Notes under the pieces: generated by a model
What the model saw: the letters and a program-made list of their open reading frames with translations, nothing else
What the model was told of the DNA's origin: nothing
Databases searched by the model: none
Shown here: positions 46,617 to 64,000 of the stretch, piece by piece
How positions within the stretch are numbered: position 1 is the stretch's first letter
How the letters are laid out: each line of letters opens with the position of its first letter
DNA from: Planctomycetota bacterium
GTDB lineage: Bacteria > Planctomycetota > JAJSAM01 > JAJVHW01
DNA length: 64,000 nt
NCBI GenBank assembly: GCA_965248445.1
Contig: CBDFJG010000003.1
Location: 384,001-448,000 of the forward strand
Direction of reading: 5' to 3'
Position numbers and translations under genes: made by a program

Positions 46617-48499
46617 CGTTCGAAGACCTTCTGCTTCTGCAGTTCGTCCTTTCCCTGCACGACGGTGACGAAACGGTTGGCGGGCACGTCGGTGAACCGC
46701 TGCACGGTGCCGGCCGCGTCGTTCCAGCGCACGACGAGACGGTCGATGCGCTCGCTCCGCCCCAGTCCGAAGTACGCCTCCGGCGGGTCCTGGTGGTTGG
46801 CGAGGCCCGAGCCGGCGCGGATCTCCCGCAACTGCCTGATCTTGCCCGTGACGACCTCGACGCGCGCACCGATACCGCTCCTGTTCGCTCCGCCCGCACC
46901 CTTGCCGACGAGCTTCACCGTCAGGAAGTGGTTGCCGCTGCGATTGGCGACGTCATTGCGCAGGAGGCCGACGCGGTTGATCTCGAGACCCGGCATGAAC
47001 TTCTCTCGGTGTGCCTTGTTCAGCCGCATGAACGAGCGCCCGATCAGGATGTCCACGTCGCCGTCGCGGTCGTAGTCCCCGAGCGAGAGGCTTCCGCAGC
47101 CCTCCCACGTCATGCCGAGTCTCTCCGTGACGTCCTTGAATGTGTGGTCCTTGTTCTGGAAGTAGACGCGCAGGAACTGCCCGTCCGCGTAGTCCCCCGA
47201 CGCGATCAGGAGGTCCTGCAATCCGTCGTTCTGGATGTCGGCAAGCGCTACGTGCAGGTCGCCGTTGTTCCACGAGCGCTCTTCGCGCCGTTTCCGCGGC
47301 GGAAGCAGGTCGGCGACGGTGATCCGCTTGAACCCGTTGCCCTGGTTCACCAACAGCGCGGACAGATCCGATGACTCGCCGGCCCACGCGTGCGTGATCT
47401 CTCCGATGAAGCAGTCCAGGTCGCCGTCGTTGTCGTAGTCGGCAACGGCACAGTCGAAGGTGTTTCCGTTCGCCCGGAACGGCGCCTCGTCCGAACGCTC
47501 TGCGCCGCGACGCTTGAAGAACTCCTGCGCCCACTCGGGGTACTTGCCGTGCTGGATCGCGTCACCCGCGAACATCGTCTCGCGACCGACGTCGACGAAC
47601 GTGCCGTCGCCCTCGTTGCGCCATTGACGGTTCCACTGGCGGCCGTACGAGAGGGCGAGGAGATCCTGATCGCCGTCGCCGTCCATGTCGCCGTGGGTCA
47701 CGCCGTACGTCGGACGGGAGGAGCGGTGACCAGCCGCAACGGGCAGCGTGGTCAGTCGAGAGGCGGTGGTGATGTCGGCGAAGCCACCTCGGCCGTCTCC
47801 GCGGAACAGACGGTCGATGCCGCAGTCCTCGAGCTGTCCGTAGACCTGGTACTCGCGGCCCTCGAAGACGTCCAGAAGCCCGTCCTGGTCCACGTCGCAG
47901 ACGGCCAGCGCCATCACGGGGCCGACATTCGCTGGAAGCGTGTAGTCGGACGCCGGTCCTCGCGCGAACCGGCCCCTGCCGTCGTTCAGCCAGACCGTCG
48001 AGCGAGCGCCGTGATCGGAGGCCGCAACGCTCTCGAAGCCCGCGGCCCCGAAGCGCACCCACGTCGCCTTGATGCCGGCCAGCGCGTCCTGGTCACCGTC
48101 GTTGTCGATGTCTGCGAAGTAGAGGTAGTGAGGCACCAGTTCCTTCGTGCTTGCCTTGGCTTGGTCCGGCTTGCCGTCGCGGCCGAGCGGGACCTGCTTC
48201 ACCACGGGGAACGGGATCCCGACACCCTCGACCTCCTTGAAGCGCGTGCCGCGCTTGCGCGACACGAGGAACGTCCGGCGGCTCAGCACGAGATCGAGCC
48301 AGCCGTCGCCGTCGAGATCGGTGAAGACGCAGTCTTTCGCGCGGTCGTCCGTGAGACCGACCTCTGTCGCCACGTCGACGAACCACGGCGGATCCTGGGG
48401 CGCAGGCGGTGCCGCGGGGTCCTGGGCCGTGGCGCTGGCCACGACCGTGGCGAGAAGTGCGGTCGAGAGTCCGATCAGACGTGCGTGGGGAGCTGTCAT
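46613..48499 (-). CDS. CRTAC1-family protein (FG-GAP repeats plus ASPIC/UnbV domain)
   Basis: Signal peptide, repeated DxDxDGDxD units, and C-terminal NRSGIGARVEV...AGSG...YFGLG...VRW. Start set at ATG 48499. Confidence 0.9.
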   Translation of the reverse strand: MTAPHARLIGLSTALLATVVASATAQDPAAPPAPQDPPWFVDVATEVGLTDDRAKDCVFTDLDGDGWLDLVLSRRTFLVSRKRGTRFKEVEGVGIPFPVVKQVPLGRDGKPDQAKASTKELVPHYLYFADIDNDGDQDALAGIKATWVRFGAAGFESVAASDHGARSTVWLNDGRGRFARGPASDYTLPANVGPVMALAVCDVDQDGLLDVFEGREYQVYGQLEDCGIDRLFRGDGRGGFADITTASRLTTLPVAAGHRSSRPTYGVTHGDMDGDGDQDLLALSYGRQWNRQWRNEGDGTFVDVGRETMFAGDAIQHGKYPEWAQEFFKRRGAERSDEAPFRANGNTFDCAVADYDNDGDLDCFIGEITHAWAGESSDLSALLVNQGNGFKRITVADLLPPRKRREERSWNNGDLHVALADIQNDGLQDLLIASGDYADGQFLRVYFQNKDHTFKDVTERLGMTWEGCGSLSLGDYDRDGDVDILIGRSFMRLNKAHREKFMPGLEINRVGLLRNDVANRSGNHFLTVKLVGKGAGGANRSGIGARVEVVTGKIRQLREIRAGSGLANHQDPPEAYFGLGRSERIDRLVVRWNDAAGTVQRFTDVPANRFVTVVQGKDELQKQKVFER

Positions 48500-48533
48500 G
48501 CGGACAGGATAGGGACCGAACAGGAGGTGAGCG

Positions 48534-48941
48534 ATGGTCGAGGTCACGGGACGATACGACGGCGAGCTCTCGTGCGTGGCAGTCCACGGCCCCTCGGCCG
48601 CCGAGATGACCACGGACGCACCAGTGGACAACCAGGGCCGCGGCCGCAGCTTCTCGCCCACGGATCTCGTGGCGACGGCGCTGGGCACGTGCGTGATGAC
48701 GATCATCGGGATCTTTGCCGCGCGGAAGGGGATCGAGATCACCGGCGCGACGTTCCGTGTAACCAAGGAGATGGCCGCCGATCCTCACCGACGTATCGCG
48801 CGTCTCCCCCTCACCGTCGTGCTTCCGGAGAGCGTGCCGCCCGATGTGCGCCCGCTGCTCGAGCGCGCCGCACACGGCTGCCCCGTGCACCGCAGCCTGG
48901 ACCCCCGCGTCGAGGCGCCGATCTCCTTCGAGTACGCGTGA
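48534..48941 (+). CDS. OsmC family protein
   Basis: TDAPVDNQGRG-SFSPTDLVATALGTC...AHGCPVHRSL. RBS AGGAGGT. Confidence 0.92.
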   Translation: MVEVTGRYDGELSCVAVHGPSAAEMTTDAPVDNQGRGRSFSPTDLVATALGTCVMTIIGIFAARKGIEITGATFRVTKEMAADPHRRIARLPLTVVLPESVPPDVRPLLERAAHGCPVHRSLDPRVEAPISFEYA

Positions 48942-48954
48942 GGTCGTTCGGCCG

Positions 48955-49368
48955 CTAGGAGCCCGCGACGACCTCGACCTTCATTCGGTCCGGGTCTTCG
49001 CAGAACAGCGCGTGGACGTCCGGTCCGCCCGCGTGCGGATAACGGTCCTCGTAGAGCAACGGCACGCCGCGCTCACGGAGTTCCTCGCGCAGCGTGTCCA
49101 CCGTGCCGGCTGTCTCGACAGAGAACGCCAGGTGGTTCAGGCCTGGACCGCCGCGGTGATAGGGTCGCTCCGCATGCCGCTCCTCCGCGGCGACGAAGAC
49201 GATGTACGTCTCGGCGCTCCGGTAGCTCCGCCCGCCGGGCCAGTCCTGGAACTGCGCCCACCCGAGGCGTGGCAGGAACCAGTCCCAGAAAGCGAGCGAG
49301 GCCGCGAGGTCCCGGACGTTCACCTCGACGTGGGAGAGTCCGGCGGGGCGCGTGGGTCTCGAGGGCAT
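48955..49368 (-). CDS. VOC/glyoxalase family protein
   Basis: LSHVEVNVRDLAASLAFW, GLNHLAF and FCEDPDRMKVEV. Confidence 0.9.
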   Translation of the reverse strand: MPSRPTRPAGLSHVEVNVRDLAASLAFWDWFLPRLGWAQFQDWPGGRSYRSAETYIVFVAAEERHAERPYHRGGPGLNHLAFSVETAGTVDTLREELRERGVPLLYEDRYPHAGGPDVHALFCEDPDRMKVEVVAGS

Positions 49369-49505
49369 GGGAGCGCGATGGAGTGTCGCGTCGCCACGGC
49401 TGGTGCCGAGGCTCCATCGGAGCCTGTCGTGAGATGGTTCCGGGCTCTCTGGGGCGCCCGCGGCCACAATCGGAGCGGACCGATTGGGAGGAGTGAGCGC
49501 ACGCG

Positions 49506-52202
49506 GTGAAGGGTCTCGAACGCACTCTTGGGCTGCATCACGTGGTCGCGATCAGCCTGGGTGCCATGCTCGGGAGCGGGGTCTTCGTGCTCCCGGGGCT
49601 CGCCGCGGCGAAGACGGGGCCGTCCGTCTGGCTGGCCTACCTGGCCGCCGGGATCTGCGTCCTGCCGGCGGCGCTGGCCAAGGCCGAAATGGCAACGGCG
49701 ATGCCGACCTCAGGCGGCACGTACGTGTACGTCGACCGGGCGTTCGGGCCGCTCGCGGGCACTGTCAGCGGTCTGGGACTCTGGCTCTCGATGCTGCTGA
49801 AGAGCTCGTTCGCGCTGGTGGGCTTCGGCGCGTACCTCGGCGCCCTCGGGGTCGAGGACATCCTGCCGCTGCGTCCGACGGCGCTCGCGGTTCTGGCGGC
49901 GATCGTGACCCTGAATCTCGCCGGCGTCCGCAAGGTCGGGAAGGTGATGCTCTGGATCGTGACCCTCGCGGTCGGCGGGCTGGTGTTCCTGGCCGTCGGG
50001 TCGCACGTCGTCGGCGAGGCCGTCGAGCAGGGGCCGTTCCTGACCGACGGGATGGGGGGCTTCGTCGCCGCGGCCGCGTTCGTGTTCGTGTCGTACGCCG
50101 GAGTGACCAAGGTCGCCGCGATCGCAGAGGAGGTGCGCAACCCCGGCCGCAACCTGCCTGCCGGGATGATCATCTCGCTGGTGGCGGCTGGACTGCTGTA
50201 CGCCTTGGTCGGGTTCGCACTGGTGAAGTTCGTCCCGCAGAGCGCCCTCCAGTCGGACCTGCGGCCGATCCACACACTTGCCGAGACGGTGGGTGGCCGT
50301 TGGGTCGGTCTCGTGTTCGCGGGACTCGGTGTCGTCACGATGCTCTCGATGGCGAACGCCGGCGTCCTCGCGTCGTCGCGGTTTCCGTACGCGATGTCGC
50401 GCGACAGACTCCTCCCGGACGTGCTCGCACGCGTCAGCGGTCGATTCGGCACGCCCACGATCGCGATCTTCGCGACCGCGGTCCCCATGACGCTCGCCAT
50501 CCTGTTCTTGGACGTCGCCGGCATCGCGAAGCTCGCGAGTCTGTTCAAGATCCTCATCTTCGGGGTCGTGAACGTCGCGCTCATCGTGCTGCGCGAGAGT
50601 GGCTCGACGTGGTACCGGCCGACGTTCCGGATACCGCTCTATCCGGCGGTGCCGATCCTGGGCGTCATCGCCTGCGGCGTGCTTCTCAGCGTCATGGGGC
50701 TGACGGCGGTCTGGGCGACCGCCGCCATCGTTGTCCTCGGCGTGCTGCTGTACGCGGTGTTCGGCCGTCGGCGTGCCGATCGCATGGGCATTGTCGAGAA
50801 GCTGTCCGCACGGAAGGGCGTGGTCGGAGACGCGGCCGAGGAGGAACACGGGCACGATCGCGCCGCCGTCGCCGTTGCGCTGATGGGCTGGGAGCGGTCC
50901 CCGGAGGCGCTCGTCGAGGTCGGTGCCGCGCTCGCTGACGGCCGCGAAATCGAGGTCATCCGGCTGAACGAGTTGCCGGCACAGATCCCCGTGACGGGTA
51001 GCGATCGAAACGTAGCCATCGTGCGGTCGCTGCGGCGCCGCATCCAGGCCATGGCGCGCGAGCGCGATCTCGATCTGCACTTCGACTCCGTGGTCACGCA
51101 CGACCTGGTGGAGACGGCACACCAGATCACGACGCGCTTCGCTTGCGAGTGGCTCGTCATCGCGTGGCGTGGTCGGCGCGCGCGATACAGGTTCCTGTTC
51201 ACAAGCCCCCTCGGGTGGCTCGTGAACCACCTGGACAGCAACCTGGCGCTGTTCCGAGATCGCGGGGTCCGCTACATCCGCAAGGTCCTCGTGTCCGCGG
51301 AGCCGGGTCCGGACGATGCGCTTGTCGTCCGCACCGCAGACCACTTGGTGGCGCTCCATGGTGCGACGCTCACGTTCCTGCGGTTCCAGCGTCCGAACGC
51401 AACCGAGGAGCAGGAGCGGAGCCGCAGCGCATACATCGAAGAGCTCGGCGGCATGTGCAAGTCTCCGTTCGAGGTTCTCACCGTCCGCGGAGCCGACCGG
51501 ATACGCAGTCTGGTCGAGACGACGGCGTCCTTCGATTTGCTGGTCACGGGCGCGCCCGCCTGGAAGTCGTTCTTCGGACAGTTCCGGGGCACCGACAAGG
51601 AGCGCATCATCGAGGGCGCCGCGTGCTCGGTGCTGATGCTCAAGACCCCGCCTGGGCGGACGCACGAAGTGCACGTCGAGGCGCCGGCAACCGCGACAGG
51701 CGAGTCGAAGGAGTTCGACCTGCTGCCTTTGTTGGTCGGCCGGTGCGTCGGCGCCCGCGTCCGCGTGCGGGACAAATCGGTGCTGTTCCGGCTGCTCGCA
51801 AAGCGATTTGCGCAAGCCACGGCGAGCCAGGACCCGCGGGTCATTCACGATGCCCTGTTGAAGCGCGAACGAACGCAGCACACGGGAATCGGACAGGGCC
51901 TGGCGTTCCCGCACTGCACGATCCCGGACCTCGATCGCACGTACGTGGGTGTGTTCGCGCTCGCGTCACCGATCGACTATGGACGTCCGGACGGCGAGAC
52001 CGTTGACGTCGTGTTCGCGTCGATCGGTCCACCGCACGATCGTCAAACGCACTTGCAGATCCTCGCCGAGTTCTCGGCGCTCGTTCTGCGCACGTCGATC
52101 GTCGAGCAACTCCGTGCGGCGCGCAACCGCGCGGCAATCCTGGATGCGCTCGCGGCCGGCCTCGCGGAGTTGCACCGCGCATCCGGCCTGCACACCGCGT
52201 GA
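49506..52202 (+). CDS. APC-family amino acid permease fused to USP-like domains and a PTS EIIA domain
   Basis: GAMLGSGVFVLPG, AEMATAMPTSGGTY and EEVRNPGRNLP. USP-like DLLVTGA...IIEGAACSVLMLK. EIIA RERTQHTGIGQGLAFPH. Confidence 0.85.
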   Translation: MKGLERTLGLHHVVAISLGAMLGSGVFVLPGLAAAKTGPSVWLAYLAAGICVLPAALAKAEMATAMPTSGGTYVYVDRAFGPLAGTVSGLGLWLSMLLKSSFALVGFGAYLGALGVEDILPLRPTALAVLAAIVTLNLAGVRKVGKVMLWIVTLAVGGLVFLAVGSHVVGEAVEQGPFLTDGMGGFVAAAAFVFVSYAGVTKVAAIAEEVRNPGRNLPAGMIISLVAAGLLYALVGFALVKFVPQSALQSDLRPIHTLAETVGGRWVGLVFAGLGVVTMLSMANAGVLASSRFPYAMSRDRLLPDVLARVSGRFGTPTIAIFATAVPMTLAILFLDVAGIAKLASLFKILIFGVVNVALIVLRESGSTWYRPTFRIPLYPAVPILGVIACGVLLSVMGLTAVWATAAIVVLGVLLYAVFGRRRADRMGIVEKLSARKGVVGDAAEEEHGHDRAAVAVALMGWERSPEALVEVGAALADGREIEVIRLNELPAQIPVTGSDRNVAIVRSLRRRIQAMARERDLDLHFDSVVTHDLVETAHQITTRFACEWLVIAWRGRRARYRFLFTSPLGWLVNHLDSNLALFRDRGVRYIRKVLVSAEPGPDDALVVRTADHLVALHGATLTFLRFQRPNATEEQERSRSAYIEELGGMCKSPFEVLTVRGADRIRSLVETTASFDLLVTGAPAWKSFFGQFRGTDKERIIEGAACSVLMLKTPPGRTHEVHVEAPATATGESKEFDLLPLLVGRCVGARVRVRDKSVLFRLLAKRFAQATASQDPRVIHDALLKRERTQHTGIGQGLAFPHCTIPDLDRTYVGVFALASPIDYGRPDGETVDVVFASIGPPHDRQTHLQILAEFSALVLRTSIVEQLRAARNRAAILDALAAGLAELHRASGLHTA

Positions 52203-52226
52203 CCGCGTCTCGCGTCCACATGCGTT

Positions 52227-52309
52227 GTGGCGTTGGCTCCGCAGAGCCAACCCTCTTACGAACAACTCGCAGATTCGGCCAGGCTCAACCGTGTTCGTCG
52301 GGAGTCGCC
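52227..52309 (+). repeat. About 83-bp intergenic repeat, copy 1 (GGCGTTGGCTC hairpin end)
   Basis: Aligns with 55321-55402. Begins with hairpin GTTGGCTC-cgca-GAGCCAAC. Confidence 0.85.
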
Positions 52310-52477
52310 TGTCTTCAAGGAACTGCGCCCCAAGGGCGGCGGGATGCCCGGCGTCGTCCATGTCGAGAATGCAGCCAATTGCCATCCCGACTTCCGCGGG
52401 TGGTTCGTGGGTACCCGTTTTCAGCCCTTGTGACTGGGGCTGGATCCAGATCGCCGCGCGACCCGTAGTGGAACCCG

Positions 52478-55027
52478 TCAGTACTTGAGCGTGCGCTTGT
52501 TCGCAGGCGACATGCGGATGTCCACGCTGCGGCTGTCCTGCCCGACCGCGATCTGGATGTTGTAGGGACCCTCGCCCGGCAGCGCGCCGAGCGTGAGTCC
52601 CTTGGCCTTAAGGAGCACCTGTTCCCTCAGGAAGTTGATCTGGAGCTTCGACACGCCCGGCGCGGACGGCGGGTTCCGGGCCACGTACACATCGCCCTTG
52701 CGGGTGAACTCGTTGCCCGGGATCGTCGCCTCGAACACTCCGCCGACCGAGATCGTCACGTCCGGCGCGGTGTCGGGCGTTCCGCCCTGCGTCGCCAGGC
52801 CCGCCAGGATCGACAACACGTCCTTGCCGTCGCCCTTGTGGACCTGCTTGACCTTGAACGGGAACACGTTCGGATTACTCAGCAGACCGCGGCGCTTGCC
52901 GAGCCTGTACCTGCCGCGCTCGAGCTCGACCGTCCCCGCGCCGGTGGCGCTCGCCGTCTCGAACTCGATCGTGATGTCACCCGAGTCCGGGACCTGGCCC
53001 ATGAAGTCGTCGGTGATCGTCAGCCTGAATTTGGCGCGCGAACTCCCGGAACGGTTCGGCTTGATGAGCAGGCGGGCGCCGCCGGACTTGAACTGGAACT
53101 TCGTGCCCTTGGTGTTCGGTTCGAGGTTCGCGGTGTACCCGAGGTCGCCGATCCTCACCGTCGCTGGTCCGGCCAGCGAGGCGCGTTCCGGTCCGGTGTC
53201 GAAGAACCCCGCGGCGTTGATCTTCGACTTCGCGGGGTTGTTCTCATTGAGCTTGACCTTCACCGTCTTTGGCAGGACGAACGACTGGATCGTGCCCGAT
53301 GCGTGGATCAGCAGCGACACGTCGCCACTCGTGCCGCCGATCGCGTCGCCGGACACGATGATCGCGTTCGTCGCGTCGATCAGCGCGCCGGAACCGCCGA
53401 AGCTCTCGAGCAGGATGCCGCCGGAGTCGATATCGCTCGAGAGCGTCGTGATCATCGCGTCCACCACGAGGATATCGCCGCCCTCCGAGATCATCGTGAC
53501 GTCGCCGGCGTTCCCTGCCTCCGCGTCGCCGGCGAACGAGATGTCGCCTTCGCAGTGCATCAGCAGGTCGCCGGAGCTCGCGTTGATCGTCGCTTGTAGG
53601 TCGATGCCGGCGGACCCCGCGACGAGCGATACGGCGTTGCCGAACACCTGCGGGCGCGGTCCCACGATCACGACCTCGGGAAAGCCGGTGCCCTGCACGG
53701 CCGCGATGCGCCCCGACGCGCCGACATCGACGTCGGAGTTCACGCTCTCGAGGTACGGGACGCCGTCCAGCAGCACTTCGCCGCCGAAGGCGCGGACCAC
53801 GACATCGCCGTCCTGGGCGCGGCAAAAACTGGCCCCCCAGACACGGACGTTCTGCGCGGACTCGACGAGGATGCCCCCGGCGCGTATGCACTCGACGCGC
53901 GCCTCCAGGCGGTCCGCGTCGTTGTCGAGCTCGACGCTCCCGCTGTGTGCGGAGACGCGGACGCCGCCGGCACCCTCCGACACAATCGCCCCGTAGTCGG
54001 AGACCACGACGGAGCCGCTCGCGGCAACGACCACCTCGCCGTCGCCCTCGGGTCCGCCGAAGGCGAGCCCGTCGGCGGCGTACACGCGGTTGCCGGCGAT
54101 CTCGACGTCCCCCCCGAACGCTTCGACCCGCAGGTCCGCAGCGAGGACGGTGATCGGCGAGTTCTGCAAGACCACGTCCTCCGAGGCCTCGATCAGCATG
54201 CGTCCGAACGTGTTGCTGCTCGTCTGGTCGAAGTCGATGTCGCCGCCGAACGCCTGCACGAGGGTCCTGACGGCGTCGAGAATGGTCGAGTCGAGGGAGA
54301 TGTGCGTCGACGACTGGATCTCCATGAACGAACCGGTCGTATCGAGAATGGAGTTGGCAATGTCGACTCCGTTGAGTCCCGACGTCGTTCCGTGCGAGCG
54401 GATGAAGAACTCCGAGCCCACCAGTTCGGCGGCGTGCGTCGGGGTGACTCCGTCCATGGGGACCATCTGGACGCCGATATCCACGCGATCCGCTTCGAGG
54501 GTCACGTGCAGCCCTCCGGTCTCGATGCCGGTGACGGGCGTGCTCCCCATGTCGTAGATCACGATCTCGTCGCCCGCGATGATCTCGATCTGTCCGAGGA
54601 TCACGCTGGTCTCGAGCCGTCCGGCAATCCGCACGGAGCCGGTCGCACGGATCGTCACCGCGTCGTCGTACGTGATGACCGAACCGTTCTCGACCGTGAA
54701 GTCCGTGTAGTTGTATGTGCCTCCGGGCAGCGACTGCGTGCTGTCGAGGGTCACCGCGCCGTCGCTGCCGTTCCCGGTGCTTGGCTTCTCCGGTAGCGGT
54801 CCCCCGTTCGCGCCCTGTGGCGGGATCGTGCCGAGCGGCGGCTTCGCGGGCGGCGTTGCCTCCGGCGCGCACTCGTCGATGGTGACGACGCCCTGCGCGT
54901 CCGCGGCACCAGCGTCGATCACGGCGCACGTCGTCACGATGGTGCCGACTCCGCCTGCGACGCTCGCGCAGAACAGGACGGTTGCCGCCGTGGCGGCAAG
55001 AGAGCTCCACCTGAGTCCTCGCATCAT
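52478..55027 (-). CDS. Large exported beta-helix/adhesin-like protein
   Basis: Signal-like N-terminus, many short beta-repeat units (VxAFGGxV, GDVxxxS) and a basic beta-rich C-terminal domain. Start set at ATG 55027 after AAGGGGA. Confidence 0.65.
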   Translation of the reverse strand: MMRGLRWSSLAATAATVLFCASVAGGVGTIVTTCAVIDAGAADAQGVVTIDECAPEATPPAKPPLGTIPPQGANGGPLPEKPSTGNGSDGAVTLDSTQSLPGGTYNYTDFTVENGSVITYDDAVTIRATGSVRIAGRLETSVILGQIEIIAGDEIVIYDMGSTPVTGIETGGLHVTLEADRVDIGVQMVPMDGVTPTHAAELVGSEFFIRSHGTTSGLNGVDIANSILDTTGSFMEIQSSTHISLDSTILDAVRTLVQAFGGDIDFDQTSSNTFGRMLIEASEDVVLQNSPITVLAADLRVEAFGGDVEIAGNRVYAADGLAFGGPEGDGEVVVAASGSVVVSDYGAIVSEGAGGVRVSAHSGSVELDNDADRLEARVECIRAGGILVESAQNVRVWGASFCRAQDGDVVVRAFGGEVLLDGVPYLESVNSDVDVGASGRIAAVQGTGFPEVVIVGPRPQVFGNAVSLVAGSAGIDLQATINASSGDLLMHCEGDISFAGDAEAGNAGDVTMISEGGDILVVDAMITTLSSDIDSGGILLESFGGSGALIDATNAIIVSGDAIGGTSGDVSLLIHASGTIQSFVLPKTVKVKLNENNPAKSKINAAGFFDTGPERASLAGPATVRIGDLGYTANLEPNTKGTKFQFKSGGARLLIKPNRSGSSRAKFRLTITDDFMGQVPDSGDITIEFETASATGAGTVELERGRYRLGKRRGLLSNPNVFPFKVKQVHKGDGKDVLSILAGLATQGGTPDTAPDVTISVGGVFEATIPGNEFTRKGDVYVARNPPSAPGVSKLQINFLREQVLLKAKGLTLGALPGEGPYNIQIAVGQDSRSVDIRMSPANKRTLKY

Positions 55028-55320
55028 CGTTCCCCTTGACCTGCCGAGAGGAGACGGATTCGGCGGTGCACTTCCCGCCTGTTCCCCCTGGGGTCCAAGG
55101 CGTCGAAAGCTGTTAACCAACGACGGCGCGTTCTGGTGAGCAATCGAGAGTTCGAGACGGAACGGACCGATTCCGGCGCTGTCGCGGGGTGTTGCGTCTG
55201 GACCCGAGAGCGAACGGGTGCGAACCGAGAGTCGGCCGTTGCGCGTAACCGTGTGCGGGCGCGGGACATGCGCGCGTTCTCTGCAAGGCGTTAACCACCC
55301 GGTCGGTTGGTTCGCGCGGG

Positions 55321-55530
55321 GTGGCGTTGGCTCCCCAGAGCCAACCCTCTTCAGAACCACTCGCAGAGTCGGCGAGGCTCAATCGGCTCGTTCGGGGTCG
55401 CCAGCGCGGCCATCGGCACGCAGGCGGGATGTACCCGCGATCGCTTGCTGGACATAGGCCAGGCCCCTCGTGACGGGAGGCCTGCCCATCGGGGCCGCGC
55501 GGGCCACGAGAGCATTCATGCACCAACGCC
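55321..55530 (+). mobile_element. Putative MITE-like element (repeat copy 2 plus right-end motif)
   Basis: Starts GGCGTTGG (55323) and ends GCATTCATGCACCAACGCC (55530). No convincing ORF and no target duplication seen. Confidence 0.5.
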
Positions 55531-55543
55531 GGTCTGCCTTCCC

Positions 55544-58006
55544 TTACTGACCCCACATCGCCCGCAACGCACTGCCCGCCGCGACACGCAGCGAGGAGTC
55601 GGCCGTGTCATCACGGCCCACGGCATCGACGACGGGCGCTGCGTCGAGTGCCGCTGGGCCGAGTTCCCGCAGAGCTTCGATCGCGTGGAAGCGCAGAGCC
55701 CAGTGCTGTGCGTCGTCGGCGACGAGATCCGTGATGACCTGTAGCGCCGGGTCGTTGGCGGTCTGGGAGATCTGCAGCGCCGCCTGTGCGGCGCGCAGCC
55801 GCAGGTGCGGGTCGTCGGACTTCATGAGCGGCCGGAGCGTGTCCGGTCCGTGGAAGGCGACGCGCCCGATGCGCCCGAGGGCGCGCGCCACGACTGCGCG
55901 AGTCAGGTTCGCACGCGCGCTCTCGTCGATGCCGCCGCCCCAGAAGGAGACGCTCCCGAACCCCACCGGGAGTTCGTAGCTCGCGAGCTCTGCGTCGTTG
56001 CGTGCCAGCAACTCTCGCAGGACCGGCACGGCGCCCTCCGCCGTAGGGCCGATCCCGCCGAGTGCCTGCACGCATTCCAGGTCGCCGGCCGTGGCGCGCA
56101 CCACCATGAGCGGCACTGCCGGCCGCGCAAGCTCGCCGAGACCGCCGAGTGCGCGGAGGGCCAGCCGGCGCGTCTCGGCGGACTCCTCGAGGTTCCGGAG
56201 GGAGCGGTCGAGTAGCGGATCGAGCGCGCCGGGGCCCATCTGGCCGAGCGCGTCGGCAACCGGCTCCGCACTCTCCCCCGGAGGACCGTCGATCACGGCC
56301 AGCATCACGTCCAGCGCCGCCCCCGCGGCCTCCGGGCCGATCGCACCGATCACCGTCGCCGCCTGCGGCATCCGCGGACCTTCGCCGGCGATCAGCGTTG
56401 CCATCTCGGGCGCGACGGGCAACGCTGCGCGCCCCATGCGCCGAAGCACGTCGAGCGCGAGGACGGCCCGCGGCTCCGCCGGCCCGCTCGCAGCCTCGAC
56501 GAGCGCCGCCAGGTTCTCGTCCGTCGCAGCGTGCGGACCGAGCGCCCGGGTCACCTCGTAGTGCACGTGCGTGAGCTTGACGGGGCGACCATCCTCGTGG
56601 GCATCGTCCCAGGCATCGAGGATCTCGGCGACCGGCGCGTCGCGGGACCGCGCGAGGTCGAGCAAGCGCGCCCGGGCCTGGTCGCCGTAGGGTTCGAGTT
56701 CCCCGTAGAGCCGGGCGATGCGAAACAGCGTCGGCACGTCGTCCGCGAGTTCGGGCTGGGCGCGCCACCGCGCCGCAAGGGCCCACTCCGGCAGGCCGTA
56801 GACCTCGCTCGTCTCGAGTTCACGCAGGCGGGAAGCCGCGTCCGCCGGCGGCCCGAGGACCGTCAGCGCTTGCACCGCCGCCCTCAGCACCCTCGCGTCG
56901 GCGTCCATGAGTGCCCGCACCAGCGCCGCGACTGCGTCGTCAGGGCTGCGCCCGATCCGCCTGAGCGCACGCACGGCCGACAGCCGCACCTCCGGCGCCG
57001 GGTCCTCGGTGACGAGACGCGCAACGTCCGGGACAGCCGCGCGCGCGCCGTCCCCCAGCTCGGCGAGCGCGTTGACCGCGACACGCCGGGCTCGCGGGGT
57101 TTCGTACGTCAGGAACTCCCTCAGCGTCTCGACGGTCTGCGGGTCCTCGGGCGCCACCCGCGCCAGGGCTCCGATCGCGGCCGACCGCTGTCCGGGATCG
57201 GTGGTCGAGAGCGCCTCGCGCACGGCCGCGACGACCTCCTCGCCGGCCGGACCGTTCCTACCGAGCCGCTCGATGACGGCCGCGCGCACGGACGCGGAAC
57301 GGTGGCGCGCCTCGGCCAGCAGGAGCGGCGTCGCCTCGCGCAGCCCGTGGCGGATGGCGTCGAGCGCCTGAGGCACGGAGTAGGACCCGCTGGTCACCTC
57401 GTAGAGCGTGATGAGTGCCGGGATCGCCGGCCGCGCGCCCGGGCCGATGTCCTCGAGCGCTCCTGCCGCGCGCTCGTAGACGTGACGGTCCGGGTCGCCC
57501 AGGGCCCAGACGAGCTCAGGGACGGCAGGCGCGGCGCCCTTGCGTAAGCGCCGGAGCGCCGCGGCGGCGTCGCTGCGGTCCGCCGCATCAGGCGACACCA
57601 ATCTACGGCGCAGAGCATCGTGGCCGCCCTCGGTCGACAGTTCGGCGAGCACGAGCGTTGCCTGGCAGCGCAGGGCGATCACAGGATCGCGCGAGCGGGC
57701 GCCCCGCTCCATCGCGGCGCGCATCTCGCCGACGCGCAGCGGTTCGAACACCAGCACGCGCGAGGCTGCCCTGCGAGCGAGGTCGTCCTGGCTGGCGAGC
57801 GCGGCGGCAAGGGCGGCGAAGGCGCGCTGGCCCTCGTCGCCTCCGGCGCGGACCTGCCGGTGGAGCGTCATGGCGGCGTCGCGCCGTTGCTCGCGAGTGC
57901 CGGTCTGCAGCGGAGCGGCGTCCTGGGCGGGGGCAACCGTGGCTCCGGCCACGAGAACGGCAGTGCTGATGGCGACGGCAACGGCGAGCCGAGCGGGCTT
58001 CTTCAT
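55544..58006 (-). CDS. Exported HEAT-repeat protein
   Basis: MKKPARLAVAVA signal peptide after GGAGGT, and many repeats of type AxxALGxIGPxAxxAVPxL. Confidence 0.85.
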   Translation of the reverse strand: MKKPARLAVAVAISTAVLVAGATVAPAQDAAPLQTGTREQRRDAAMTLHRQVRAGGDEGQRAFAALAAALASQDDLARRAASRVLVFEPLRVGEMRAAMERGARSRDPVIALRCQATLVLAELSTEGGHDALRRRLVSPDAADRSDAAAALRRLRKGAAPAVPELVWALGDPDRHVYERAAGALEDIGPGARPAIPALITLYEVTSGSYSVPQALDAIRHGLREATPLLLAEARHRSASVRAAVIERLGRNGPAGEEVVAAVREALSTTDPGQRSAAIGALARVAPEDPQTVETLREFLTYETPRARRVAVNALAELGDGARAAVPDVARLVTEDPAPEVRLSAVRALRRIGRSPDDAVAALVRALMDADARVLRAAVQALTVLGPPADAASRLRELETSEVYGLPEWALAARWRAQPELADDVPTLFRIARLYGELEPYGDQARARLLDLARSRDAPVAEILDAWDDAHEDGRPVKLTHVHYEVTRALGPHAATDENLAALVEAASGPAEPRAVLALDVLRRMGRAALPVAPEMATLIAGEGPRMPQAATVIGAIGPEAAGAALDVMLAVIDGPPGESAEPVADALGQMGPGALDPLLDRSLRNLEESAETRRLALRALGGLGELARPAVPLMVVRATAGDLECVQALGGIGPTAEGAVPVLRELLARNDAELASYELPVGFGSVSFWGGGIDESARANLTRAVVARALGRIGRVAFHGPDTLRPLMKSDDPHLRLRAAQAALQISQTANDPALQVITDLVADDAQHWALRFHAIEALRELGPAALDAAPVVDAVGRDDTADSSLRVAAGSALRAMWGQ

Positions 58007-58074
58007 CGCGACCTCCGGGAGAGAGTCCCCATCAACCCTAACGTTCGGCGTCGTCGGGAACTTTGGTCGGGCGC

Positions 58075-58193
58075 GGCGTTGGTGCGTGAATGCCTCCTGG
58101 CGTCCGCGTGCTGCCAGTCGTGCCCGAGCCGAAGCCACGTCGCGCTGGCTCAGGCTCGGCAGACGCGCCGCCCGGCACTCATGCACCAACGCC
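58075..58193. mobile_element. 119-bp palindromic MITE/REP-like element with 20-bp terminal inverted repeats
   Basis: GGCGTTGGTGCGTGAATGCC ... GGCACTCATGCACCAACGCC (18/20 complementary), with further internal inverted repeats. Confidence 0.7.
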
Positions 58194-58340
58194 CCGAATC
58201 GGCCGCGGTGTCTACCGTGTTTCGCGTCGTTCGAGGCGAGACGCCGCCTCCCTTGGTTCGCGGCGTTCGACGGTGACGATCGTGTGACGCCGGGGACGAA
58301 CAACGGGCCCGTAACATCAACAGCGGATGGGAGAGCCGAC

Positions 58341-60227
58341 ATGAGACGCCTTGCAGCCGGTCTGCTCGCCGCGGGGCTTCTCGTCACCGGCTGCGGCGAC
58401 GGCGCGTCCTCGCCGTCCGACGCGCAGTCGCCGCCCGCCGCGCCCGCGGCGGCGGAGACGCCGCGGCCGATCGAGGACCGCGTCGCCAACGCTCTGCGCG
58501 TGGCGCGGGACGAGGGAACGCACTGGCACCGCACGGACGCGCTGGTTCGTCTCGGCGAGGAAGCCGCCGCTCCGCTCTCCTCGATGGTCCGTGACTCCGA
58601 ACACGGCGCCGAGACCCGAGTGCTCGCGGCGCAGGCCCTCGGACGGATCGGCGGCGCCGACGCCGCGGGCACGCTACGCGCGCTCATGACCGACGAGGCC
58701 GCACCCGAAGTGCTGCGCAACGCCGCCACCGAAGCGCTGTGCGTCCTCGGCGAGCGCGAGCCGGTCGAGCGTCGGATCGCCTCATGGCGCAAGCGCTACG
58801 CGGAGATCTCGATCGCCCGCGCTGGCGCAAGGCAGCGCATCGCCAAGACGCTGTACGCCAGCGGCCAGTTCCGGGCCGGTGCCGACGCCTGGCGCGCGCT
58901 CGCACGTGCTGAAGACGACCCGGACCGCCGCTGGGCCTACGCGTACGACTGGGCGTGCTGCGCCGCGCTCGCCGGCGCAAAGGACGAGGCGCTCGAAGCC
59001 GTCGCGTTGGCGGTCGAGTCGGAGCGGACAGACCTCGACTGGATGGCGCGGGACGGCGACCTGCGTACGCTCCACGACGATGCACGCTTCGACGCGCTCC
59101 TCGCCGCGGCGCGCGAGAAGCGTGGGGGAATCCCGTCGGAGACGGGCACGGCGACCGCGGCCTCGTCGCTCGAGGGAGAGCCCGGATTCGCCGAGTACGC
59201 CGCACTCCGCGCCGAGTACTGGGACGGCGCGTTCGACCGCCACATCGAGGAGAACAACCGGTACTGGGGCGGTTACGACGACTTTCTGGAGGCCGAGGGA
59301 AAGAGCCGCACGCCGGAGGCGGCCGCCGCCTACATGGAACGAAACGGCCCGCCACCCGAGGACCCCTCGCCGGAGTACGCGAAGAAGTACCGCACACTAC
59401 TCGTGCGCTACCCCGCAGGCCGCGTCGGCGCCAAGCTCCGCGCGAGTCTGTTGACGATCTACTCGAACGCCCAGAACCACGCGGACTGGGTCGAGCTCTA
59501 CCTCGAGGCGATGGAGCTACCGGAACACGAGAGCGTGGTCGGCGAGAACGCGGGCACCGCGATGTGGGGATCCGACGGCGTCGAGCGTCGGGACGAGATG
59601 CGGGCGCGCCTTCGCACGTGGCTCGCGGCCCATCCCGAGGGCGAACCCGCCGCGCAGATCCGCTCCGCGCTCGCCGAGGACCTAAAGGGCTCGGGAGACA
59701 CCGCCGCCGCCCGCGCCGCGTTCGAGGAGATCGTCCGGCTCCACCCCGGCACCCGGCAGGCGAAGGAGGCCAAGGGCGCGCTCTACGAGCTGGACACGCT
59801 CGCCGTCGGCATGCCCGCGCCCGGGTTCGAGGCGAAGGACATCCACGGCGGAGCGATCTCCCTCGCCGCCCTGCGCGGCAAGGTCGTGCTGCTCGACTTC
59901 TGGGCGACGTGGTGCGGCCCGTGCATCGGGGAGCTGCCGAGCCTCATCGCCCTGCACGAGCGCTTCGAGGGCCCCGACTTCGCCCTCGTCGGCATCTCGC
60001 TCGACGAGGACGGCATCGCGCTCGTCGACTTCCTCGAAGAGGAGGACATGCCCTGGCCGCAGGTGTGTGACCTCGGCGGCTTCGAGGGCGAGGTCCCGCG
60101 CCTCTACAACGTCCGCGGCATACCGCACACCGTCCTCGTCGGGCCCGACGGCCGCATCCTCGCCCGCGACCTGCGCGGCGACGAACTCGCGGCCGCCGTC
60201 GAGAAGGCGCTCGCCGCGACGCGCTAG
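58341..60227 (+). CDS. Lipoprotein with HEAT/TPR repeats and C-terminal TlpA-like thioredoxin domain
   Basis: Lipobox LLVTGC, HEAT and TPR-like helices, and APGFEAKDIHG...GKVVLLDFWATWCGPC...YNVRGIP. Confidence 0.88.
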   Translation: MRRLAAGLLAAGLLVTGCGDGASSPSDAQSPPAAPAAAETPRPIEDRVANALRVARDEGTHWHRTDALVRLGEEAAAPLSSMVRDSEHGAETRVLAAQALGRIGGADAAGTLRALMTDEAAPEVLRNAATEALCVLGEREPVERRIASWRKRYAEISIARAGARQRIAKTLYASGQFRAGADAWRALARAEDDPDRRWAYAYDWACCAALAGAKDEALEAVALAVESERTDLDWMARDGDLRTLHDDARFDALLAAAREKRGGIPSETGTATAASSLEGEPGFAEYAALRAEYWDGAFDRHIEENNRYWGGYDDFLEAEGKSRTPEAAAAYMERNGPPPEDPSPEYAKKYRTLLVRYPAGRVGAKLRASLLTIYSNAQNHADWVELYLEAMELPEHESVVGENAGTAMWGSDGVERRDEMRARLRTWLAAHPEGEPAAQIRSALAEDLKGSGDTAAARAAFEEIVRLHPGTRQAKEAKGALYELDTLAVGMPAPGFEAKDIHGGAISLAALRGKVVLLDFWATWCGPCIGELPSLIALHERFEGPDFALVGISLDEDGIALVDFLEEEDMPWPQVCDLGGFEGEVPRLYNVRGIPHTVLVGPDGRILARDLRGDELAAAVEKALAATR

Positions 60228-60228
60228 C

Positions 60229-60335
60229 TGTAGGAACCGAGCAGGTTGTGAACACCCCCGGGTCTCCGGGTCAGATGGGGATTGGAAACAGCCCCACTGA
60301 CCTTGAGCCTCCGCAAGCCAGGGTTCTCTCCCACG
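60229..60335 (+). mobile_element. Possible IS481-family end remnant
   Basis: GCTAGC immediately followed by TGT-N11-AGGTTGT matches my recollection of the IS481 end and target pattern. No transposase follows. Confidence 0.35.
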
Positions 60336-60337
60336 CG

Positions 60338-60356
60338 GTACTCATGCACCAACGCC
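60338..60356 (+). repeat. Solo copy of the TCATGCACCAACGCC end motif
   Basis: gtactcatgcaccaacgcc. The 15-bp core is identical to 55516-55530, 58179-58193 and 62532-62546. Confidence 0.85.
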
Positions 60357-60505
60357 CGGTTGCCGGCTCATGCATCCATGCCGCTGCCGCCCGTGGGTCT
60401 GCGCTGACCCCGTAGCGAAGCGGACCGACGGATCCGACCCACCGAAGCTGGTTCCGGTCTGTCGGCAGCGCATCTCCGTCCTGGGCGCTACGATCGCCAC
60501 CTCAC

Positions 60506-62320
60506 ATGACTACGACCACGGACCGCCGGTCGACGCTCGTTCGCCCGTGCTCCCCCGTCATCGTGACTCTGCTCGTCGCCGCCAGCGCGCTCTTGGCGCT
60601 GCCTCGCGCGAACGCATCCAAGGACAACGAGAAGTGGGAGACGAAACTCACCCTCAACTGTCCGACGGATGGCGCCGTTGCGTACATCGACGGCGAACTC
60701 TGGGGGGCATTGCCCAAGACAAGTGTGCAGCCCAAGAAGTCCGGCAGCGTGAAGGTCGTGGTGCTCTGCGAGGACTACGCGGTGCTGCGTCGCCGGGTAG
60801 CCCTCCGGGGTTCATCGGACACGGTCGTCACCCTGCCGGCACTCAAACCCGCGTCGTGGCCAACGCTCGAGTCGGGCGACGGTTTCTCCGTCGCGTGGGA
60901 GTCCAAGGACCTCGGCTGGTTCGACGGCGGCACGGCGCCGCCGGGCGCCGGTCGGCTTGCGCTCGGCCGCCGCGGCCGCGTCACGCAATTCGGGTCCGCG
61001 CGGAAGCTCGATCCCGGCGAGGTGGTGCGGGGCGAGCCGAGCGACTGGGAGCCGCGGCCGGCCATGCTCGATCTGTGGGACGCCGCACACGGCACGACCG
61101 TGCGCCTCGATGGGGAGGACGTGAAGGACGGCGCCCCGGTCGCACTCGGCTCCCACGCGTTGCGCGTCTTCGCCAACCGGAAGCGGCAGGACGTAACCAT
61201 CGAGGTCCTGCCGGGCCAGCGCGTCGTGCGCGTGCCTCCTCTGTTCTCGGATCCAGATCCGATCGCCGCGGCACACACGTGGCTCGCAACGCACCAGGCA
61301 CCGGACGGACGCTGGTCGTCGTCGCGCATGAAGTGCTCGTGCGCGCCCCGTTGCGAGCCCGGCGCAGCGGGGCTCGACGTCGGCGTGACAGGCCTCGCGC
61401 TGCTCGCGTTGCTCGACGGTGGGAACACGCCCACGGCAGGGCCGCACGCCGACGCGGTCGCGAAGGGGCTCGGGTTCCTGATGAAGGCGCAGTCCGAAGA
61501 CGGCTTCTTCCAGCCCGCCGGGGCGCGCGGCGCGACGTTTGCCCAGCCAATCGCAGAGCTTGCCGTCCTCGAAGCGTGGGGGGCGACCGGCGACGAGAAG
61601 TTCGCGGCGGCGGCTGAGCGCGGTCTCGCCGCCATCTACAAGTGCCAGAATCCCTACCTCGCATGGCGCTATGGCGTTCGGGACGGCGACAACGACACGG
61701 CCGTGACCGTGTGGATGACGCTCGCCATCTCCACAGCCGCGCGGATGGATCTGGGCCTCGCGCCATTCTCCGACGTGCGCCCAGACTCGCGCACCGCCGT
61801 CCTCTCTCTGCGGGGCGCGCATCACTGGTTCGCCAAGATGACCGATCCGTCGACCGGCAACATCGGATACCAGAGACGCGGAGGTGGCCGCGCGTACCGG
61901 CCGAAAGAGAGCGGACGCTCCAGCGACATGCGCAACCTGCGATCGGGCGACTGGTCTCTCACCGCGATGGCGATGCTTGCGAAGAGGCGCATCGCCCGGG
62001 TGAACGGCGAGGACCCGGACACCCCGGACACCGAGTACGCCTCCGACCTCTCGCTCGCCGGCATTGCCGAGAACGCGCCATTCGCGGACCCGGACCCACA
62101 GGTCTACTTCGACGTCCACGCGGCCTGGTTCGGGGCGCGTGTCCTGCGCTCGGCGCGGAGCGCCTGGCCCCGACGCTGGAAAGACGGCATGCAGCGGCTC
62201 GCGGGTCTGCAGAGGAGCAACGGTTCCTTCGAACCGGACCGCGCGTTCAGCGCCACGGGCGGCTCGGTCTTCACGACGTCAATGGCCGCTCTCGCGCTCC
62301 AGCAGTGGCTTCGCCAGTGA
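60506..62320 (+). CDS. Exported PEGA-like plus prenyltransferase/squalene-cyclase-repeat protein
   Basis: Signal peptide, PEGA-like DGAVAYIDGELWG, and QW-type repeats WLATHQAPDGRW, FLMKAQSEDGFF and LAGLQRSNGSF. Confidence 0.8.
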   Translation: MTTTTDRRSTLVRPCSPVIVTLLVAASALLALPRANASKDNEKWETKLTLNCPTDGAVAYIDGELWGALPKTSVQPKKSGSVKVVVLCEDYAVLRRRVALRGSSDTVVTLPALKPASWPTLESGDGFSVAWESKDLGWFDGGTAPPGAGRLALGRRGRVTQFGSARKLDPGEVVRGEPSDWEPRPAMLDLWDAAHGTTVRLDGEDVKDGAPVALGSHALRVFANRKRQDVTIEVLPGQRVVRVPPLFSDPDPIAAAHTWLATHQAPDGRWSSSRMKCSCAPRCEPGAAGLDVGVTGLALLALLDGGNTPTAGPHADAVAKGLGFLMKAQSEDGFFQPAGARGATFAQPIAELAVLEAWGATGDEKFAAAAERGLAAIYKCQNPYLAWRYGVRDGDNDTAVTVWMTLAISTAARMDLGLAPFSDVRPDSRTAVLSLRGAHHWFAKMTDPSTGNIGYQRRGGGRAYRPKESGRSSDMRNLRSGDWSLTAMAMLAKRRIARVNGEDPDTPDTEYASDLSLAGIAENAPFADPDPQVYFDVHAAWFGARVLRSARSAWPRRWKDGMQRLAGLQRSNGSFEPDRAFSATGGSVFTTSMAALALQQWLRQ

Positions 62321-62511
62321 GGCGCGTCCGCGATCGGGAGACATGCCGACACGGAGGCGTTGCCGGCCGGGTTCGTGCCGGATCGGCCGGTAGACGACGC
62401 GAATCGCTGGCGCGTGCTCGACAGTTGCCGGTTCATGCCCCAACCCCGGTGGCAGGAGGTTCGCCCATGGGGACCTGGCGCGCTACCAGAGGCCAGGGCA
62501 GCCCAGGCTCG

Positions 62512-62546
62512 ACGCGGCCGCCAGGGGGCATTCATGCACCAACGCC
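62512..62546 (+). repeat. End-motif copy with extended homology to the 58075 element
   Basis: acgcggccgccagggggcattcatgcaccaacgcc matches the reverse complement of 58075-58109 at 32/35. Confidence 0.85.
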
Positions 62547-62655
62547 CCGATGACGAGTGACTCGGGCCGGGCGTCGCCACCGTCATTTACATCGGCACGT
62601 GGAATGCGACGGTCGCGACCGTATGCTCACTCGGGGAGTGAGAGGGTGCGTAGAC

Positions 62656-62770
62656 ATGGTGCTTCGTGACGCGTGTGTTCTCGGCGGACTCGCCATCGCC
62701 GTCTTGGGTCTGGCATCGAGTGTTGAGAGTGCGAAGGCCGCGACCGTCGCGGAATTCGACCAGCAACTGG
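62656..62770 (+). pseudogene. 5' stub of an exported-protein gene interrupted by the IS3-family element
   Basis: GAGGG RBS, then MVLRDACVLGGLAIAVLGLASSVESAKA|ATVAEFDQQLA, which runs straight into the IS end. Confidence 0.5.
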
Positions 62771-62812
62771 CGGGACGTGTCAACGATTCTGAGACACCGC
62801 GCGTCTTGGAGT

Positions 62813-63789
62813 TTAGTGAGCGACCTCCTGTGTCGCCGGCTGCGGCGCCGGCGGGTTGATCCAGACTTGGGTCGGGAGCGCCGGCGGAGCCGGCGCACGA
62901 CGCACGAAGCGCTCGGGGTGAGCACGGTAGGCGGCATCGAGCACGACGGAGCGCGCCGCGACGGCGGCCTCGGCGCGGCCGTAGTGGACGGTCTCGGGCG
63001 TCAAGAGCCCGAGGCTCGAGTGCCGGTGCTCGCGGTTGTACCAGTCGAAGAAGGCGCGGCAGTGCGCGCGCGCGTCCTCGATGGAGCCGAAGCGCGAGGG
63101 GAAGTCCGGCCGGTACTTCATGGTCCGGAACTGGCTCTCACTGAAGGCGTTGTCGTTGGACGTGTACGGCCGGCTGTGGGACTTCGTCACGCCCAGGTCC
63201 GCCAGCTTGAGCGCCAGCGTCAGCTCACCGGCGCGGGTCCCCTGCTTGTCGCACGCGTGCGCGACGAGTTCCTTGGCCAGCGTGCCGCTCTCGCACGCAG
63301 CCAGCGTCCAGCCCACGACGTGGCGCGAGTAGATGTCGAGCACGACGTAGAGGTGGTAGTACGTCCACTTCACCGGTCCCTTGAGCTTGGTGATGTCCCA
63401 GCTCCAGACCTGGTTGGGGCCCGTCGCCAGGAGCTCGGGCTTCTTGTACGCCGGATGGCGCAGTTGGTTGCGGCGCTCTCGCACCGCGCCCGCCGTGGCC
63501 AGGATGCGGTACATCGTGCGCGGCGAGCACAGGTAGCGCCCCTCGTCGAGCAGCATGGCCCACACCGTGCGCGGCGCGAGGTCCACGAAGCGCTCGCCGT
63601 TGAGCACCTCGAGCACACCCACCCCCGTTCCTGGGTCGAGAGCGCCCGCGGCGAAGGCGGGCGCGGCTGCTGGGGCCGGGGGCACGCCCGTGCCGCCCGG
63701 CGCCGGTAGAGCGTGGCGCGCGCAACGCCGAGCGCGCGGCAGGCCGGAGCGACGCCCACGCTCGCTCCCAGGTCCTCAGCGGCGATCAC
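62813..63789 (-). pseudogene. IS3-family transposase OrfB, frameshifted and internally deleted
   Basis: The N-terminus (ACRALGVARATLYR) and the core (PNQVWSWDITKL, SNDNAFSESQFRTMKY) are in different frames, with the switch near 63620. The expected HADRG segment is absent (ELTL|ALKLADLGV). Confidence 0.85.
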
Positions 63790-64000
63790 GTGTCGCTCCC
63801 GCTCGTCTCGGGCATCTCGATGCCCAGCAGCCGTGAGACTTTTTTCTGCACGTCGATGATCGTCTCAGCGGTCTCAAGCCGCTGGCGCAGCCGGACGTTC
63901 TCGCGCTCGAGCTGCGTCAGGCGCCGCTTGAGGGCGCGGGCCGGGTCGGGCCTGGGGCCGCGACGCTTGGGCGCGAGCGCTTCGAGTTGGCCCTGGTCGC
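63786..64000 (-). CDS. IS3-family OrfA, C-terminal part
   Basis: Reads ...LAPKRRGPRP...LERENVRLRQRLETAETIIDVQKKVSRLLGI...stop, with a GTGA overlap with orfB. Confidence 0.85.
   Translation of the reverse strand, partial: DQGQLEALAPKRRGPRPDPARALKRRLTQLERENVRLRQRLETAETIIDVQKKVSRLLGIEMPETSGSDT

Follow-up and report, generated by a model that had tools for sequence, protein, structure and literature searches.

A cassette-like gene array in a Planctomycetota genome as a pile of IS903-group ends and MITEs probably grown by replicative transposition and adjacent deletion

The 15-bp sequence TCATGCACCAACGCC that recurs between the genes of a cassette-like array in a Planctomycetota bacterium is the terminal inverted repeat (TIR) of an IS5-family, IS903-group element and of its MITEs. 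The window analysed here (64,000 nucleotides, G000:C3:384001-448000, from a 5.4-Mb source genome that is 92% complete) is part of a 25-kb pile of remnants that probably grew by repeated local replicative transposition and adjacent deletion, which would trim accessory DNA down to selected genes. The preliminary description of this window had read it as an accretion array built by one-ended transposition or recombination at IS-derived ends. Its observation of the repeat is partly confirmed and its interpretation is partly supported: the IS903-group origin, the clustering and the accessory genes stand, the uniform cassette array does not, the ends being mixed remnants of two-ended elements and the genes lying on both strands, and replicative transposition with adjacent deletion is better supported than the one-ended transposition that had been claimed.

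Four identical plus-strand copies of the 15-mer had been described as ending at 55530, 58193, 60356 and 62546, and exact copies do start at 55516, 58179, 60342 and 62532, at intervals of 2,663, 2,163 and 2,190 bp rather than the 2.2-2.7 kb first given. An inverted copy with one mismatch lies at 58075, as had been reported; the degenerate copy placed near 62432 was found at 62433, and another at 60368 had been overlooked. With up to three mismatches, the window contains seven matches against 1.96 expected, a number reached in none of 100 shuffles. No such match occurs in the first 55 kb of the window, in keeping with the preliminary description, which had noticed none in the first 52 kb. The exact 15-mer occurs 14 times in the 5.4-Mb source genome, and a weight matrix at a threshold of at least 21 bits finds 27 termini there and none in a reversed-sequence control; 33 weight-matrix rows, less six weak ones, went into the site-clustering analysis.

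The cognate element is present in the same contig. At G000:C3:320391-321477, two copies of the motif facing each other enclose a 317-aa open reading frame within an intact element of 1,087 bp. The encoded transposase matches NF033579 with 280 bits (cut-off 140) as well as PF13737 and PF01609, shares 36% identity with IS903B transposases and retains the DDE triad when aligned with IS903B. The likeness to the IS903 terminal repeat that had been noted, 13 of 18 bases, holds against IS903B ends taken from plasmid records. The element thus has the single-ORF DDE transposase of the IS903 type, and its length (1,042-1,131 bp in relatives) and its TIRs (15-27 bp, GGC.TTG.TG type) are also those of the IS903 group, which bears out the origin first proposed. 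The statement that no cognate transposase was visible is true of the window as far as an intact gene is concerned; outside it lies the intact gene, and within it ten codons (MSSKRSRVHP) of a truncated transposase remain, with their ATG at 55455 on the minus strand. Five further elements in the source genome, four of 119-133 bp and one of 264 bp, are short, non-coding and bounded by the cognate TIRs, and with multiple copies and an autonomous partner they are MITEs, which fold into long hairpins. No target duplication was seen in the MITE flanks examined. No IS6 model was matched in NCBIfam or Pfam searches for an IS6-type transposase.

The four exact copies in the window are four different things and not equivalent sites (Table 1). 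They had been described as the same oriented end, and while all four do lie on the plus strand, they belong to different kinds of end, and the genes between them run minus, plus and plus. The terminus at 55530 is 13 bp from the stop of the HEAT-repeat gene, and the 119-bp MITE is 13-14 bp shorter than its three 132-133-bp sisters elsewhere in the genome. Two termini cut into other copies, that at 62447 into the 62546 element and that at 60356 into the 60382 end. With 75-85% divergence between the remnants in the window and the intact copy, the events here are old, and it is mainly other genomes from which the mechanism is deduced, two points that count against the history proposed below.

Table 1. 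Features in and around the array (window positions)
Feature	Position	Strand	Remark
Exported-type protein gene, 848 aa	52478..55024	-	Without Pfam family
Truncated left end (IRL) of IS903-group element	55424..55530	-	TIR, 5' leader and first 10 transposase codons
HEAT-repeat protein gene, 820 aa	55544..58006	-	Signal-like N-terminus
Complete MITE, 119 bp	58075..58193	.	Long imperfect inverted arms; without target duplication
Lipoprotein-like gene, 628 aa	58341..60227	+	C-terminal TlpA/AhpC-TSA thioredoxin domain
Fragment of unrelated repeat	60223..60307	.	86% to C3:1749334-1749418; adjoins inner side of next end
Orphan TIR end	60308..60356	-	With ~50 nt interior of no assigned origin
Degenerate second end	60357..60382	-	Cut 26 nt from its terminus by 60356 end
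Exported-type gene, 604 aa	60506..62320	+	PEGA-like and prenyltransferase/squalene-cyclase-like domain; both matches below curated cut-offs
Right-end (IRR-type) remnant	62362..62447	+	Degenerate TIR
Chimeric end	62448..62546	-	46-nt MITE arm (62501-62546) and IRL-leader-like stretch (by eye); cut by 62447 terminus
Start of fourth signal-peptide gene	62656..62777	+	Interrupted ~62778 by IS3/IS481-like element; probably continues past window
Unrelated IS3/IS481-like element	62778..64000	-	Extends to ~64353

The cluster runs past the window to C3:464808, and beyond the window it includes transposase fragments, another MITE, an ECF-sigma fusion and a glycosyltransferase. Six of its 12 termini face right and six face left, so the uniform orientation of the exact copies is partly a window effect. 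The local hotspot that had been claimed is borne out by mapping across the genome: for 10 of 17 sites the nearest other site is at most 10 kb away, a count equalled in none of 5000 permutations. An evenly dispersed REP was ruled out, 12 of the 27 curated termini being found within 25 kb. Among control IS families, one is clustered too (22 of 54 sites against 9.6 expected) and another is not (4 of 42 against 6.1). The idea that the intervals in the window are composite transposons bounded by outer duplications was rejected, as no exact cross-flank match of 7-12 bp exists among 83 ends of the source genome. Termini in this genome do not lie significantly close to stop codons (3/15, p=0.39), no positional enrichment of TTG[AC][CT], as in promoter targeting, was present in sets of 329 and 77 flanks, and no sigma-70-like site was found in 55300-62800.

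According to the preliminary description, a single large gene with a signal or lipoprotein peptide occupies each of the three intervals, and the N-termini of all three fit, as judged by reading the sequence and not by a predictor; the gene calls are our own, with unreliable starts and some genes missed. The fourth such gene announced after the last copy does start at 62656, but it is cut at about 62778 by the IS3/IS481-like element. The 848-aa gene upstream has paralogues at 59-60% elsewhere in the genome, distant from any such end. We compared the content of the array with five family relatives, which belong to other genera and are too distant for breakpoint testing. The HEAT-repeat gene was found in none of the five at E<=1e-25, the TlpA gene in one (29%, partial) and the 604-aa gene in all five by its C-terminal domain only (34-39%), while a neighbouring permease occurs in two at 75% in an unrelated gene order. 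Conserved gene order, together with an even spread of the motif through the genome, had been named beforehand as what would count against the accretion reading, and no shared order was seen in these relatives. The comparison supports the view that the framed genes are accessory and that their order is not conserved in the family.

A notable trait of this lineage is the lack of target duplications, which had been pointed out for the window copies and is correct for them. Starting from 77 related loci in several phyla we obtained 65 full elements, none of which has an 8-9-bp duplication, and an extended, overlapping set gave 0 of 70, including copies more than 99% identical to a sister. The 9-bp direct repeat that flanks members of the IS903 group was absent from all 102 full-length copies even when two mismatches were allowed, with 0.66 expected by random pairing. 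The two densely sampled genomes contribute 0 of 32 (G304) and 0 of 35 (G305) in sets that overlap with the 102. Outside the clade, 9-bp duplications flank six of seven copies of a canonical relative in genome G229 and four of eight distinct sites among control loci with a TIR pair found. In a quick tree the clade is set apart with an SH-aLRT of 99, and after the first catalytic Asp its members read GEWAAAKHG, against GEWKV[RK]KHG in the duplication-making relatives; this motif may be linked to the transposition route.

The junctions themselves suggest how such copies arise. The flank consensus is palindromic outside both IRL and IRR, with C at position 2 and G at 8, and G at 3 and C at 7; its symmetry on a 9-bp axis is r=0.91, against at most 0.39 for the other lengths within 5-13, and 46 held-out termini from the source genome and the related genome G006 exceed background on this consensus (z=5.0). 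Because the flanks are symmetric on a 9-bp axis and no duplication is present, each end appears to sit in a 9-bp target and the two ends in different ones. This symmetry, together with one split duplication, indicates a 9-bp stagger: in G305 a sister copy is split into halves 1-178 and 167-1079, which lie 110 kb apart and have a 9-mer in common. Since duplications are lacking and yet a 9-bp stagger is indicated, the lineage is best placed as a variant of the IS903 group and not as a plain member. Contiguous flanks were found in none of the 28 informative cases from 84 elements (three self-hits dropped) and in none of 34 informative cases from a second set of 52, whereas the same test, applied to three control families, was positive in three of 15 informative copies. 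Blunt insertion without duplication was ruled out because the flanks never rejoin. Of 95 internal breaks in truncated sisters, 18 abut a sister terminus, where 0.6 would be expected, and one end-9 bp-end junction was observed. Split duplications number one among 133 termini in G305 and none among 108 in G304; being so rare, they barely record any gain in copy number by inversion or cointegration. As with IS26, the copies are without matched duplications and lie at rearrangement junctions, a trait that the controls partly share.

We therefore propose, as the probable history, that the transposase would cut its targets with a 9-bp stagger and usually join without excising the element, a copy-in route as in IS26. 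Attack in cis on nearby DNA would delete the interval together with the partner duplication, while attack in trans, or on another circle, would add a copy and invert or integrate DNA. Copies would persist only in dispensable islands, and deletions would stop at useful genes, which could give such a locus its cassette-like look. The intact transposase would act in trans to mobilise the MITEs. An identical end product would result if the host recombined two simple insertions with each other.

A different and rather unlikely possibility is that of an active gene-accretion platform, in which circles of a gene plus a MITE excise and insert beside an existing end, as do IS26 translocatable units, to produce integron-like arrays. 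The cleaner array of G006 (G006:C2, 23.5-65.8 kb) keeps this idea possible. It is like the IS26 arrays described in PMC7986276. Within its 42 kb lie seven MITEs that are complete, 132-295 bp long, along with a number of solo right ends; all nine HMM-assignable pieces share one polarity, 13 of 14 genes are called on one strand (a second caller adds one minus-strand gene), and of the eight termini that face a stop codon, six are no more than 25 bp away from it, a distance found for 29 of 262 random intergenic points (p=7e-5). A gene-plus-MITE unit in G006 is duplicated at 94% over 1,580 bp, 170 bp adjoining the intact copy in the source genome recur with 100% identity close to a second end cluster, and the 110 kb between the two halves of the G305 copy could likewise be taken as movement of this kind. 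Against it, the window array has mixed ends, polarity and gene strands, most paralogues of the array genes elsewhere in the source genome have no end within 80 kb, the start of the duplicated G006 unit does not coincide with a MITE terminus, and among the joints listed, 15 of 173 and all from one sample's contigs, none is at a terminus. Trimming under selection explains the tight spacing in G006. The common orientation needs no targeted insertion, because the orientation of copies in G305 is biased by region (2 of 21 plus in one and 16 of 19 plus in the other, with the split chosen by eye), and in our analysis such a bias could explain the co-orientation in G006 as well. Orientation bias of IS families has been described in a passage of PMC3971601. 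It is doubtful, though worth stating, that an IS903-group clade has switched to IS26-like copy-in and, using its MITEs as landing pads, builds genes for exported proteins and ECF sigma factors into integron-like arrays in uncultured bacteria, with neither integrase nor attC.

It is also unlikely that we are dealing with an ordinary IS903-type cut-and-paste element that accumulated in a permissive island and, in generally unstable genomes, lost its duplications afterwards through host recombination and through other IS families. Duplications are indeed scarce in some other families of the same genomes: an IS66-like element of the source genome keeps them at two of 41 copies, with contiguous flanks in 0 of 15, and a 1,487-bp element of genome G306 at three of 22. 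The clustering of one control family, given above, points the same way, and passages of PMC13224724 invoke recombination between IS903B copies for duplication-free deletions. Compared with the IS66-like control alone, the lineage does not differ significantly (p=0.08). However, two other IS families of the source genome keep duplications at 5/10 and 3/5, and when these, the IS66-like and the G306 elements are pooled, duplications are kept at 13 of 78 control copies and at 0 of 102 in the lineage (p=1e-5, with kin among the copies not independent). Automatic calls of IS boundaries are noisy, and the controls were restricted to families with clear TIRs. Erasure would have to be complete in several phyla and in near-identical sisters too, and if recombination had caused inversions, split partners should be numerous, yet few are seen. 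An array without any link to transposition, formed by site-specific recombination at sites of the attC kind or of another recombinase, is highly improbable: the MITEs fold into long hairpins and, like attC sites, have diverged among themselves, but the motif terminates an intact element with a DDE transposase, remnants carry transposase codons, no integron integrase exceeded its cut-off, no tyrosine recombinase match was found within the cluster, no Rfam family exceeded its threshold, and the GTT/AAC polarity is the reverse of that in the attC consensus, RYYYAAC...GTTRRRY. An integron was rejected on the same grounds of reversed repeat polarity, together with genes on both strands and no TIGR02249 match over the cut-off in the 92% complete source genome.

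IS903 is the textbook element that can tip between simple insertion and replicative transposition. The present lineage resembles IS903 and IS903B in its length of about 1.05-1.09 kb, its single DDE transposase (36%), its TIR (13/18) and the 9-bp stagger that we infer here, and it differs in that canonical members carry 9-bp duplications and none of the 102 copies does. All IS903-group entries in Table 2 of PMC3281130 have 9-bp duplications, and passages in PMC11708052, PMC13224724 and PMC2723962 indicate that IS903 can transpose replicatively and make adjacent deletions, which according to PMC2723962 begin at the element terminus. For IS26, of the IS6 family, PMC4471558 reports that a matched flanking duplication was absent from every single copy, and a section of PMC7986276 describes arrays in which direct and inverted copies are intercalated with genes and rearranged by replicative transposition. 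Duplication-free copies, gene-intercalated arrays and replicative rearrangement are thus shared with IS26 arrays, pseudo-compound transposons and translocatable units, and the junctions of the lineage appear to fit IS26-like replicative transposition with adjacent deletion. The transposase family is a different one, however, the target of IS26 is 8 bp and not 9 bp, and the arrays here consist mostly of non-autonomous MITEs and of decayed ends that surround genes for exported proteins and ECF sigma factors. An IS5 element of the IS903 subgroup in E. coli C likewise has duplication-free copies, with a new copy at the junction of a large deletion, a single event that is proposed in the part of PMC11708052 concerned to be insertion into a DNA break. 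In our lineage, by contrast, both ends carry the 9-bp target consensus of a transposase type, which argues for junctions chosen by the transposase. The likeness to integron cassette arrays and CALINs is superficial: diverged palindromic repeats lie between the genes, and in G006 the arrangement is tight and co-oriented, but there is no IntI and no attC here, the repeats derive from a DDE transposon and the polarity in the window is mixed.

The type of element is already known; neither an IS903 clade free of duplications nor gene arrays framed by IS903-group MITEs turned up in the open-access literature searched. The clade is natural and widespread, is apparently fixed on the rearranging route and has a distinct motif beside the catalytic Asp, which would make the switch testable with natural sequences. 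If our reading is true, it would be a second, unrelated family that behaves like IS26. Tidy gene-repeat arrays can come from transposon-driven trimming with no recombinase, which is a warning for annotation; the window is a decayed example, ordinary if taken alone. A metagenome scan with the 133-bp MITE returned two short contigs and no array. The exact motif is present in three of 41 related genomes, the source genome included, and a looser pattern occurs in 29 of 401 genomes of the phylum. Contigs from the only sample in which the stretch was found match 46000-59922 and 60253-62800 of the window with zero differences, and that sample is probably the source itself and so is not independent.

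The terminal inverted repeats (TIRs) of the IS903-group element that stand alone in the cluster differ in direction on the two sides of approximately 447 kb on contig C3 of the source genome (G000). In a post hoc count, each of the four solo ends to the left of this point faces right and the four on its other side all face left, so that the termini are directed toward the centre. Several genes lie close to such ends or to the related MITEs. The 3' end of a glycosyltransferase gene falls within a MITE (locus L001), whose TIR supplies the stop codon, and in five places in two genomes (the source genome and G006, a related genome with a co-oriented MITE-gene array) an ECF-sigma fusion gene begins approximately 60–130 bp past an IS903-group end. 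The cluster also contains a gene for a 1,722-aa repeat protein, of which a 98% copy is found on contig C2.

Features at and around IS903-group ends in the source genome and G006
Feature	Position
Solo ends facing right	window 55530-62546
Solo ends facing left	G000:C3:449803-464808
Glycosyltransferase gene end within a MITE (locus L001)	G000:C3:451955-451969
ECF-sigma fusion gene sites	G006:C2:25467, 39381, 43233; G000:C3:451837; G000:C4:1652681
1,722-aa repeat protein gene	G000:C3:458772-463940
170-bp duplication, two copies	G000:C3:321475-321644; C3:1209571-1209740
81-83-bp repeat, two copies	window 52222-52302; 55316-55396
Sequence related to this repeat	C3:457397-457687

A 170-bp sequence adjoining the right end of the intact 1,087-bp element is duplicated with 100% identity elsewhere on C3, approximately 900 bp away from another tandem pair of ends; this duplication hints at recent activity.

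Among the relatives of the element, the full copies on G305:C30 show a strong regional orientation bias, with 2 of 21 in plus orientation at 0.5–2.3 Mb versus 16 of 19 at 4.1–5.4 Mb; the copies in G304 appear to be of mixed orientation. One flank is common to two genomes, joining the left end at L125 and the right end at L130. Other elements lie at or in IS903-group copies. In several copies from Vicinamibacterales (L071, L072, L076, L083 and L086), the first TIR base adjoins an element with the end sequence TGTGCCGGGAAAGC, suggesting an IS that targets IS903-group ends, and a 1,630-bp element occupies an identical position within the right end of three copies (L090, L112 and L116).

Other repeats are present in the source genome. 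A 1,500-bp IS66-like element has 41 copies genome-wide, only two of which have kept the 8-bp duplication, and the 848-aa exported-type gene is flanked on both sides by an 81–83-bp repeat (83–86% identity), to which a sequence further along C3 is related.
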